NCBI RefSeq assembly: GCF_000027125.1
Contig: NC_017626.1
DNA length: 64,000 nt
Strand: one strand, 5' to 3'
Source of the DNA: Escherichia coli 042
GTDB taxonomy: Bacteria > Pseudomonadota > Gammaproteobacteria > Enterobacterales > Enterobacteriaceae
Shown here: positions 56,301 through 59,175 of the stretch, piece after piece
Position numbering within the stretch: the first letter of the stretch is position 1
How the letters are laid out: each line of letters starts with the position of its first letter
Position numbers: made by a program

Positions 56301-59175
56301 CTAAATTTCTTGTAACAATGTGAAGTACCGAAGTGGGTGATTAGCTCAGCTGGGAGAGCACCTCCCTTACAAGGAGGGGGTCGGCGGTTCGATCCCGTCA
56401 TCACCCACCACTTCGGGTCGTTAGCTCAGTTGGTAGAGCAGTTGACTTTTAATCAATTGGTCGCAGGTTCGAATCCTGCACGACCCACCAATGTAAAAAA
56501 GCGCCCTAAAGGCGCTTTTTTGCTATATGCGGTTTGTAAGATTGATTTTTCTTCTCAAGTTCCTTGTTCTTCTGCCGATATTACCTCGTACAGTGACGAG
56601 GACTGAACAATGGCCACTATCTCTCCAACTTCAATTCCTTCCATACAAACACAGAGTAGTAACAGGGCATCAGAAGGTAGCGATGTTGCTTCACAAATTG
56701 CGCGGATAAGTCAGCAAATCATCAAACTCACTCAACAAATTAAAGAGATTGCAGACACTAGCGGCAGTGCTGAAGACAAGCAAAAACAGGCCGAATTGAT
56801 TCAGCAGCAAATCACCCTACTGGAAACACAACTGGCGCAGTTGCAAAGACAGCAGGCAGAAAAAGCGCAGGAGAAAGAGCAGCGTTTGTCTCTGAATGCA
56901 TCCCTTCCAAATCCTGTTGAAAAAACGACTCAGATCGATATCTATATCTGATACAGCGGATCCCCTTCCCGCCCAGCCATTAGAGCACGGCCCTGGCCTC
57001 GTACCACGTCCCATAACGCTTGTGCGGCGGTGGAAAGTGAACGGTTCTTCCTGCGCACCAGCATCAACTGGCGTTCCACCACCGGCGTAATGCGCTTTAC
57101 CACCAGCGGGCTACCTTCAGGTAACGGCAGCGCCAGTGCGGGAAGAATACTAATGCCGATGCCTGCGGCTACCATCGGGAACAGCGTCGCCGGATGTCCA
57201 ATCTCCTGCACAATATTCGCCTGAATACCATTGCGCGCCAGCGCTGCGTCAATCAGCGGTCGGCTGCCTGACGCGTAATCCTGCAACACCAATTTCGCTC
57301 CCTGTAATGCCTGCCAGGGTACATAATCTTCCGCGGCCAAAGCGCTATCGCGATGGCAAAGCAAGAAGAAAGGCTCGGAAAGAATCGCTTCACATTGCAG
57401 ATCGCCCACTGGGCCTGGATCGATGACGATGCCAAAATCGACATCTCCCTGGCGAATACTTTCCATCACCCACTGCTGCGGACGATCGTGCAGGATAAAC
57501 TGAATATCTGGATAGCGGCGATGGCTTTCAGCAATGCATTGCGGAATAAGATGCGCGGAAATGGTCTGGCTGGCAGCGACCCGAACTTTTCCGCTCAGTT
57601 GTTGCCCCATACGCCCGGTATCGCGCAACGTGCTGTTAAGTTCATCCAGCAGTCGCTCAAGACGCAAAGCCAACTGCTGCCCTGCATCTGTAAGCACCAC
57701 TTCACGCGTGGTTCTGTCCAGCAGGCGAACACCAGTATGATTTTCCAGCTCCTTCACACTGTGACTTACTGCCGACTGACTCAGGCCGATACGCTCTCCT
57801 GCACGACTAAAACTTTTCTCCTGCGCTACTGTGACGAAAACCTTTAATTGTTTTAAAGAATAATTCATCTGTTTTATTCATGAATGGATGCAATAAATCA
57901 ATTTTATTTCTCAAACTGGAAGAAGCACAATAGAACCATCGATCATCTGGAGTCTTTATGAAACTTTTTCGTATCCTCGATCCTTTCACCTTAACCCTGA
58001 TCACGGTGGTGTTGCTGGCCTCTTTCTTTCCGGCCAGAGGCGATTTCGTCCCCTTCTTTGAAAATCTGACCACTGCAGCTATTGCCCTGCTGTTCTTTAT
58101 GCACGGCGCGAAGTTGTCGCGTGAGGCGATTATTGCTGGCGGTGGGCACTGGCGACTGCATTTGTGGGTAATGTGCAGCACCTTCGTATTGTTTCCGATT
58201 CTGGGCGTGCTGTTTGCCTGGTGGAAACCGGTAAATGTCGACCCGATGCTCTACTCCGGTTTTCTCTACTTGTGCATTCTCCCCGCTACCGTGCAGTCTG
58301 CAATCGCCTTTACTTCAATGGCGGGCGGTAACGTCGCGGCAGCGGTTTGTTCTGCGTCAGCATCCAGCCTGTTGGGGATTTTCCTTTCACCATTGCTGGT
58401 TGGTCTGGTGATGAATGTTCACGGTGCAGGGGGCAGCCTTGAGCAGGTCGGTAAAATTATGCTGCAACTGCTGCTGCCGTTTGTGTTGGGGCATCTTTCC
58501 CGGCCGTGGATTGGTGACTGGGTGTCGCGCAATAAAAAATGGATTGCGAAAACTGACCAGACGTCCATTCTGTTGGTGGTTTATACAGCGTTCAGCGAAG
58601 CCGTCGTTAATGGTATCTGGCATAAAGTTGGCTGGGGATCATTGCTGTTTATCGTGGTGGTCAGCTGCGTTCTTCTGGCTATCGTGATCGTAGTTAACGT
58701 CTTTATGGCACGCCGACTGGGCTTCAATAAGGCAGATGAAATTACTATCGTCTTTTGTGGTTCGAAAAAGAGTCTGGCAAATGGCATCCCGATGGCAAAC
58801 ATTCTTTTCCCCACATCGGTGATCGGTATGATGGTGCTGCCTCTGATGATTTTCCATCAGATCCAATTGATGGTCTGTGCGGTGCTGGCGCGTCGATACA
58901 AACACCAGACCGAACAGTTACAGGCGCAGCAGGAAAGCCGCGCCAATAAAGCTTAAAGAGGACGCTTCAGGGGCTGGACCAGTTGCGTCAGCCCCTCAGT
59001 TTTAATCAGCAGCGTGATTTGCATTAGCTCACCGAGCTTCCCTGCCGGGAACTCATCTTTGCGGGCAAACCACAGAAGATACTCCTCCGGCAGGTCGATT
59101 AAGCGACGCCCTTTGTATTTGCCAAACGGCATTATCGTATTGGCTATTTCAATCAGCTGCTCTTTTTCCATCTCA

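Follow-up and report, generated by a model that had tools for sequence, protein, structure and literature searches.

A FlxA-family gene in place of xapR-xapB-xapA-yfeN between lysV and yfeR in Escherichia coli 042

Layout of the lysV-yfeR interval

The stretch of Escherichia coli 042 DNA analyzed here (64,000 nucleotides of contig NC_017626.1, referred to throughout as the window) carries between the tRNA gene lysV and the regulatory gene yfeR a single short gene of the FlxA family, in the interval that in K-12 MG1655 is filled by xapR, xapB, xapA and yfeN. The distance from the 3' end of lysV to the yfeR stop codon is 451 nt in the window versus 4601 nt in K-12. The original prediction, made from the window alone, had described just this difference, and alignments and a Pfam match bear it out; its figure of about 450 bp for the window agrees with the measurement, while its figure of about 5 kb for K-12 was right as to the genes found there (the xap operon and yfeN) but slightly generous as to length. 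The features of the region are as follows.

54419-55834, minus strand: gltX
56093-56490, plus strand: valU-valX-valY-lysV tRNA operon, three tRNA-Val(UAC) and one tRNA-Lys(UUU) (ARAGORN and Rfam tRNA matches); conserved left flank
56495-56521, plus strand: lysV intrinsic terminator, an A-run, a GCGCC-loop-GGCGC hairpin and T6 (read in the sequence)
about 56537-56941, no strand: 405-bp segment specific to this haplotype (ends taken from alignments to K-12 and O157:H7)
56555-56581, plus strand: predicted sigma-28 (FliA) promoter (pattern search)
56598-56602, plus strand: Shine-Dalgarno sequence GAGGA, 7 nt 5' of the ATG (sequence)
56610-56951, plus strand: FlxA-like gene, 113 aa, WP_000201400.1 (open reading frame, Pfam, RefSeq annotation)
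56942-56951, no strand: convergent 3' overlap of 10 nt between the FlxA-like gene and yfeR (reading-frame coordinates)
56942-57868, minus strand: yfeR, LysR-family regulator, 308 aa (open reading frame, RefSeq annotation); conserved right flank
57958-58956, plus strand: yfeH

Alignment with K-12 places the left breakpoint 15 nt past the T-run of the lysV terminator, at approximately 56536/56537, and the right breakpoint at 56941/56942, at most 1-2 nt from the yfeR stop codon, such that about 405 bp in the window occupy the place of ~4.4 kb (xapR-xapB-xapA-yfeN) in K-12. Identity to K-12 is 99.7% in the tRNA operon and 97.3% in yfeR; the first 46 nt 3' of lysV match most E. coli genomes, and the lysV terminator is common to both haplotypes and is kept in all aligned loci. 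The overlap with yfeR, predicted at about 10 nt, is exactly 10 nt, and the last codons of the FlxA-like gene (Tyr-Ile-stop) fall in DNA that also codes for the C-terminus of YfeR.

Apart from the FlxA-like gene, the lysV-yfeR interval contains only chance open reading frames (ORFs) that overlap this gene, in agreement with the RefSeq annotation. When K-12 proteins were compared with the 64-kb window by tblastn, no xapA, xapB or yfeN was found, and the sole similarity was the paralogy of XapR and YfeR. No integrase, transposase or phage gene lies near the segment among the window ORFs or in the RefSeq annotation, and a repeat search returned no direct repeats (attachment-site-like, att-like, or duplications of a tRNA 3' end) bracketing 56537-56941. 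The segment thus differs from a tRNA-linked genomic island in having neither an adjacent integrase nor att-like repeats, and a role of the tRNA operon as an integration site is left without support.

The FlxA-like gene and its predicted promoter

The 113-residue protein matches the Pfam family FlxA (PF14282; independent E-value (i-Evalue) 7.1e-15, score 55.4) over residues 15-92, corresponding to positions 4-82 of the 101 in the model, and BLASTP against K-12 FlxA gives 45% identity over 74 residues of the helical core (E 3e-13); the family similarity that had been proposed for it, and for which BLAST was the intended check, was thus found. Its description as Gln-rich also holds, since 20 of its 113 residues (17.7%) are Gln, and RefSeq names WP_000201400.1 a 'FlxA-like family protein'. 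K-12 FlxA itself (b1566, in the Qin cryptic prophage), the founding member of PF14282, is of similar length (110 versus 113 aa) and has the same IDIY(V/I) end. Aligned with orthologues and with 20 distant family members, the protein shows the architecture of the family: a length of ~100-125 aa, a Ser/Thr-rich N-terminus, a helical core that is rich in Gln and contains QQAE, and an IDIY(I/V) motif at the C-terminus, the protein alignment showing the terminal QIDIYI to be conserved. Judged from these features, the ORF is a genuine gene and a member of the FlxA family.

The AlphaFold model (mean predicted local distance difference test score, pLDDT, of 70) has residues 1-21 disordered, helices at 22-47 and 54-97 folded back as a hairpin, and a disordered tail. 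The type III secretion hairpins FliJ and CdsO have a similar predicted shape of two antiparallel helices; such hairpins are a generic shape and the match falls short of significance, so that the resemblance is a lead only. A Foldseek search of the PDB gave no significant match (the best was the CdsO hairpin, E 0.37, 11% identity), a sequence search of the PDB returned designed coiled coils only and no related solved structure, and NCBIfam gave coiled-coil noise far under the curated cut-offs. Because the helical-hairpin shape is combined with a disordered Ser/Thr-rich N-terminus, we would guess that the product is a substrate or accessory of flagellar export.

In all genera examined the frame is uninterrupted and codes for 112-118 aa. 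Against orthologues of other genera the ratio of nonsynonymous to synonymous change (dN/dS) is 0.14-0.18 and third-position changes dominate; between close alleles it is 0.5-0.6. The gene of O157:H7, O145 and E. coli B (WP_000201407.1, likewise a 'FlxA-like family protein') has the same position, yfeR overlap and promoter as that of the window, and its protein is 92% identical, the changes including D110G. In the O157:H7 allele (L003:4120-4461) this change falls in the nearly invariant IDIY motif, and dN/dS against the window allele is 0.63; constraint on the gene may be relaxed in that lineage. The family as a whole comprises 237 representatives at 50% identity (E <= 1e-3), as estimated from a full hidden Markov model (HMM) scan of 1.84 billion proteins; a word-indexed protein search gave eight matches only and was uninformative as to breadth. 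Three distant members are stand-alone genes outside flagellar clusters. A literature search on 'FlxA-like' and on the RefSeq accessions found no study of the lysV-yfeR gene.

Upstream of the gene, a pattern search located a sigma-28 promoter match at 56555-56581 (+), with the -35 element TCAAGTTC, an 11-nt spacer and the -10 element GCCGATAT, which ends 28 nt 5' of the ATG. If three mismatches are tolerated, chance would yield 0.64 such matches over the two strands of the window, and the probability of one in the 90-nt upstream stretch in the right orientation is estimated at about 5e-4. Across 10 aligned orthologous loci there is no variation in TCAAG, in T.CTGCCGATA or in the AGG at the core of the Shine-Dalgarno sequence, the start codon is likewise conserved, and no gap falls between the promoter elements, while the spacer from terminator to start has otherwise diverged heavily. 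The corresponding motifs in Enterobacter and Scandinavium read TCAAGCTC-N11-GCCGATAC and TCAAGCCC-N11-GCCGATAA. Across the family, a CCGATA-type -10 element stands upstream of 16 of the 16 loci examined, three of which deviate from the canonical pattern (L021 by a spacer of 12 nt, L022 by its weak -35 and L024 by TCCGATAA). In the three distant stand-alone members the -10 element, of GCCGATAA or TCCGATAA type, stands 29-39 nt 5' of the ATG; a 12-nt spacer is seen in one of them and a weak -35 in one.

The predicted promoter resembles FliA sites mapped by chromatin immunoprecipitation (ChIP) at flgKL (TCAAGTCC...GCCGATAA), motAB (...GCCGATAT) and flxA (PMC4183435), and its position is like that of the K-12 flxA promoter, TAAAGATT-N11-GCCGATAG, 23 nt before the ATG. 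It is for K-12 flxA only that dependence on FliA has been shown experimentally: its FliA site is mapped by ChIP (PMC4183435), and deletion of fliA lowers its expression 28-fold (PMC1935009); the gene is described as having no evident part in motility or in the synthesis of flagella (PMC4183435). By analogy, the lysV-yfeR gene is very probably a late (class 3) gene of the flagellar regulon that is transcribed, like K-12 flxA, by FliA-RNA polymerase, as we infer from the conserved promoter sequence.

A consensus scan reported no terminator on the + strand in 55800-58000, a negative of little weight because the same scan missed the obvious lysV terminator. As no + strand terminator was detected, sigma-28 transcripts could run on antisense into yfeR, and such read-through is a possible consequence of the layout. 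On the opposite strand, a weak terminator-like hairpin with a T-run lies at 56790-56805 (-), inside the FlxA-like coding sequence and ~140 nt beyond the stop codon of yfeR; termination of yfeR transcripts could occur there, and the conservation of the hairpin is inseparable from that of the coding sequence. A 6-bp hairpin (56584-56589 with 56596-56601) that would hide the Shine-Dalgarno sequence, and that seemed to carry compensatory changes in Kluyvera, was dropped because its 5' arm begins 2-3 nt past the -10 element and is probably untranscribed, and because it was not recovered in other genera. The only other three-mismatch sigma-28 match in the window (TTAAGTTC-N11-GCTGATAA, 29876-29902 (+)) lies in a frc-yfdX-like intergenic region, ~200 nt 5' of a 183-aa ORF at 30106-30657, and is probably a chance occurrence.

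Distribution in E. coli and other Enterobacteriaceae

The population sample comprised 5426 complete E. coli genomes, in which the FlxA-like segment was counted when at least 80% of its length was matched. The segment is present in 1306 of the 5426 (24%), including O157:H7, O145 and E. coli B, and at >= 99% identity in 247; in O157:H7, O145 and E. coli B, the sampled copies show about 96.6-96.8% DNA identity to the window segment. xapAB is present in 4072 genomes (75%), and so is the K-12 yfeN-yfeR junction (4072 of 5426, with a median of one copy per genome). In sampled genomes that lack the junction, the match to the K-12 query begins at the yfeR stop or close to it, and the FlxA-like gene is present in every one of these genomes except one. 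The equal counts, according to which xapAB always lies beside yfeR, together with the sampled junction-less genomes, lead to the conclusion that the FlxA-like and xap arrangements are alternative, mutually exclusive alleles of one site, which is thus variable, as had been anticipated.

Genomes with the FlxA-like allele are very probably devoid of xap genes, and E. coli 042 very probably lacks the XapA/XapB route for xanthosine. This expectation, already part of the original prediction, fits the identical single-copy-site counts (4072 and 4072) and the result of one survey, in which xapB was carried by 51% of the isolates of phylogroup A, by 45% of those of B1 and by 0% of those of D and E (PMC9602453). 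According to another paper, xapA and xapB constitute K-island KI#103 / K-loop#178, defined in comparisons of K-12 with O157:H7 (PMC2749873); this is the same presence/absence polymorphism of xap, the O157:H7 layout being that of the window. Both papers catalogue the xap genes, and in the excerpts available neither mentions the occupant of the xap-negative site (PMC2749873, PMC9602453).

The xapAB genes themselves fall into two deep allele classes in E. coli, 2424 genomes being at least 99% identical to K-12 and 1480 at 90-95% (query L002:4730-6879); the yfeN-yfeR junction splits in the same manner, and this divergence exceeds the 2-3% of flanking core genes. FlxA-like haplotypes occur also beside yfeR alleles that are 99.2-99.7% identical to K-12's, from which it follows that recombination has moved alleles between backgrounds.

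Relatives beyond E. coli were drawn from a one-genome-per-species collection and then outward from YfeR homologues. The order alaXW - yfeCD - gltX - Val/Lys tRNAs - FlxA-like gene - yfeR - yfeH - ligA is shared by Pseudocitrobacter, several Kluyvera species and Pluralibacter, all close relatives of the protein in that collection lying at this site, and the same arrangement is seen in Enterobacter hormaechei and two Scandinavium genomes. The identical 10-nt overlap with yfeR recurs in Pseudocitrobacter, Enterobacter, Scandinavium and an enterobacterial contig, L027 (Logan SRR28250605). On that contig, positions 1090-2100 (-) read yfeN 3' end - terminator - sigma-28 promoter - FlxA-like gene - yfeR; its FlxA-like protein has 112 aa and is 63% identical, and its yfeR DNA is ~76% identical to that of E. 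coli. L027 thus has both modules, yfeN being found next to the FlxA-like gene, and represents a third state of this interval. Citrobacter freundii has the order yfeR-xapA-xapB-xapR-tRNAs, with neither yfeN nor the FlxA-like gene, which indicates that the xap module and yfeN are themselves separable; there xapA adjoins yfeR across a 220-bp spacer (L015:7927-8147). Salmonella LT2 presumably has xapABR-yfeN at the lysV-yfeR site.

Between the window and O157:H7 the synonymous difference (pS) is 0.054 for the FlxA-like gene and 0.067-0.10 for flanking genes. The closeness of these values suggests that the segment has been in E. coli for about as long as core diversity. Comparison of the window yfeR with Pseudocitrobacter (nonsynonymous difference, pN, 0.027; pS 0.47; L007) and with Citrobacter freundii (pN 0.093, pS 0.72; L015) shows the former to be closer, whereas yfeH is about equally distant from both, a pattern that hints at an old lateral exchange spanning yfeR. 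In one Pseudocitrobacter metagenome-assembled genome (MAG; L006:756-1097) the FlxA-like gene differs at 9% of synonymous positions from E. coli, compared with 45% for the adjacent yfeR and 61% for yfeH; this may be either a recent intergenus exchange of ~400 bp or a chimeric assembly.

History of the locus

The account that we consider probable is that the interval exists as two common, exclusive haplotypes, with the FlxA-like gene an old resident under its own sigma-28 promoter and xap-yfeN a separate module. The interval of 042 in this account holds one monocistronic gene for a 113-aa FlxA-family protein, with its own FliA promoter and ribosome-binding site, converging on yfeR with an overlap of 10 nt. 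This gene would be an old chromosomal resident of the Enterobacteriaceae maintained by purifying selection, neither a recent insert nor a prophage gene, and xapR-xapB-xapA-yfeN would be a separate module able to sit at the same site. K-12-type E. coli has the xap block and would have lost the FlxA-like gene, 042 has the FlxA-like gene and no block, and at least one other enterobacterium has both. Anatomy, population frequencies, synteny, coding constraint and promoter conservation are observed here; expression, the nature of the product and the lack of the XapA/XapB route in 042 are inferred. Transcription by FliA-RNA polymerase would occur late in flagellar assembly, as for K-12 flxA, and the product would be a small helical-hairpin protein, probably not needed for motility.

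A different history, which we hold to be unlikely, is that the 042 lineage once had the K-12-like arrangement and that its xapR-xapB-xapA-yfeN block was replaced by foreign FlxA-like DNA through recombination in the lysV and yfeR flanks. Such an import is consistent with the low G+C content (GC) of the segment, with the fact that the closest xap-bearing relatives examined (Citrobacter freundii) and 75% of E. coli have no FlxA-like gene, and with the presence of FlxA-like alleles beside yfeR copies nearly identical to K-12's, a sign that the haplotype is carried between backgrounds by recombination. Between E. coli and Pseudocitrobacter, moreover, the FlxA-like gene and yfeR are closer than are yfeH or ligA, which hints at exchange between genera. 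The same arrangement, overlap and promoter are nevertheless found in at least five other genera, and the divergence among E. coli FlxA-like alleles equals that of the flanks, as expected from long residence and not from recent import. Synteny, flank-like divergence and contig L027 together indicate an old resident and not an incoming substitute, and since a state with both modules exists, no replacement event is required. The polarity implied by the word 'replaced' in the original prediction is thus doubtful; replacement here is a difference from K-12, not a demonstrated event in the 042 lineage.

Several observations weigh against the account of an old resident. The haplotype-specific segment has a GC of 43.7%, compared with 51-55% in the flanks and 49.7% in the window; the low value is explained in part by a coding sequence rich in Gln, Lys and Ile, and the Kluyvera and Pluralibacter orthologues have a GC of 52-54%. 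Each haplotype is without trace of the other module: when the xap haplotypes of K-12 and Citrobacter were searched for leftovers of the FlxA-like gene with tblastn and blastn-short at sensitive settings, the sole match was about 20 nt shared with the yfeR terminus. The FlxA-like pS to Pseudocitrobacter is 0.39 (P. faecalis) or 0.093 (the MAG) versus 0.62 for yfeH, the FlxA-like gene and yfeR together lying at 0.39-0.47; given this unusual closeness, recombination could have brought the segment back into E. coli. The xap block occurs without the FlxA-like gene in Citrobacter freundii and in 75% of E. coli, and within Escherichia, where E. coli was the species compared, the change may have run in either direction. 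That xap is absent elsewhere in 042 is concluded from population counts, the window covering 64 kb of the genome. Finally, the promoter is a sequence prediction, and the literature search found no expression data for the lysV-yfeR FlxA-like gene.

That the ORF might be a prophage moron or the remnant of a degraded prophage, as suggested by the location of K-12 flxA in Qin, appears very improbable. Apart from the prophage home of the founding family member, what speaks for it is a weak match to PHROG 11044 (E 1.4e-9), which is far weaker than that of K-12 FlxA (1.8e-71). Unlike K-12 flxA, the window gene occupies a fixed core site, flanked by lysV and yfeR; its surroundings are free of genes for phage functions, integrases and transposases, and core-genome synteny is maintained across genera; at the loci examined no att sites or phage gene remnants were found flanking the FlxA-like gene. 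It is scarcely credible that the ORF is a chance reading frame or a decaying pseudogene in a spacer. The lack of an assigned function, the dN/dS of 0.5-0.6 between close alleles and the D110G change in near-invariant IDIY of O157:H7 would fit such a state, but none of the genera examined has a broken frame (length 112-118 aa), dN/dS drops to 0.14-0.18 with mostly third-position changes at larger distances, and promoter, Shine-Dalgarno sequence and start codon are conserved.

A broader proposal can be added to the account of two exclusive haplotypes, and we regard it as improbable as it stands: that the lysV-yfeR gene is the ancestral founder of the FlxA family and a conserved late flagellar member, overlooked because K-12 lost it to a xap cassette. 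Its product might act as a substrate or accessory of the flagellar export apparatus, its transcript might run antisense to yfeR and so couple motility with the YfeR/YfeH regulon, and selection might maintain the xap/FlxA-like dimorphism in E. coli.

As a discovery the locus carries little weight. The FlxA-like allele is an ordinary, frequent one that is already annotated in RefSeq, and the polymorphism is already known as KI#103, the site having been catalogued since the first K-12 versus O157:H7 comparisons; modest additions are the synteny across genera, the conservation of the sigma-28 promoter and the contig that has both modules. The allele marks strains expected to lack the XapA/XapB xanthosine route, and K-12 does not show the reference arrangement of the lysV-yfeR interval in the Enterobacteriaceae. 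A conserved, probably FliA-driven small gene, carried by E. coli B/BL21 and O157:H7, is moreover invisible to studies of the flagellar regulon that are based on K-12.

Two further features concern the left flank. The order and number of genes in the tRNA operon vary even beside an identical FlxA-like segment (L001:3638-4000; L006:40-636; L010:1-522; window 56093-56490), being Val-Val-Val-Lys in the window, Val-Lys-Val-Lys in E. coli 118UI, Lys-Val-Lys-Lys-Lys in the Pseudocitrobacter MAG, and four Val followed by Lys in Kluyvera sichuanensis. The 3' end of lysV and its terminator are duplicated in a repeat of 156 bp (L002:3330-3531; L004:3031-3156), labelled 'RtT sRNA' in strain Santai; the repeat follows lysV in K-12, O157:H16 Santai, P. 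faecalis and two Kluyvera species and is not present in the window after 56490; it is unrelated to the polymorphism, because it occurs in FlxA-like haplotypes and in other genera as well.

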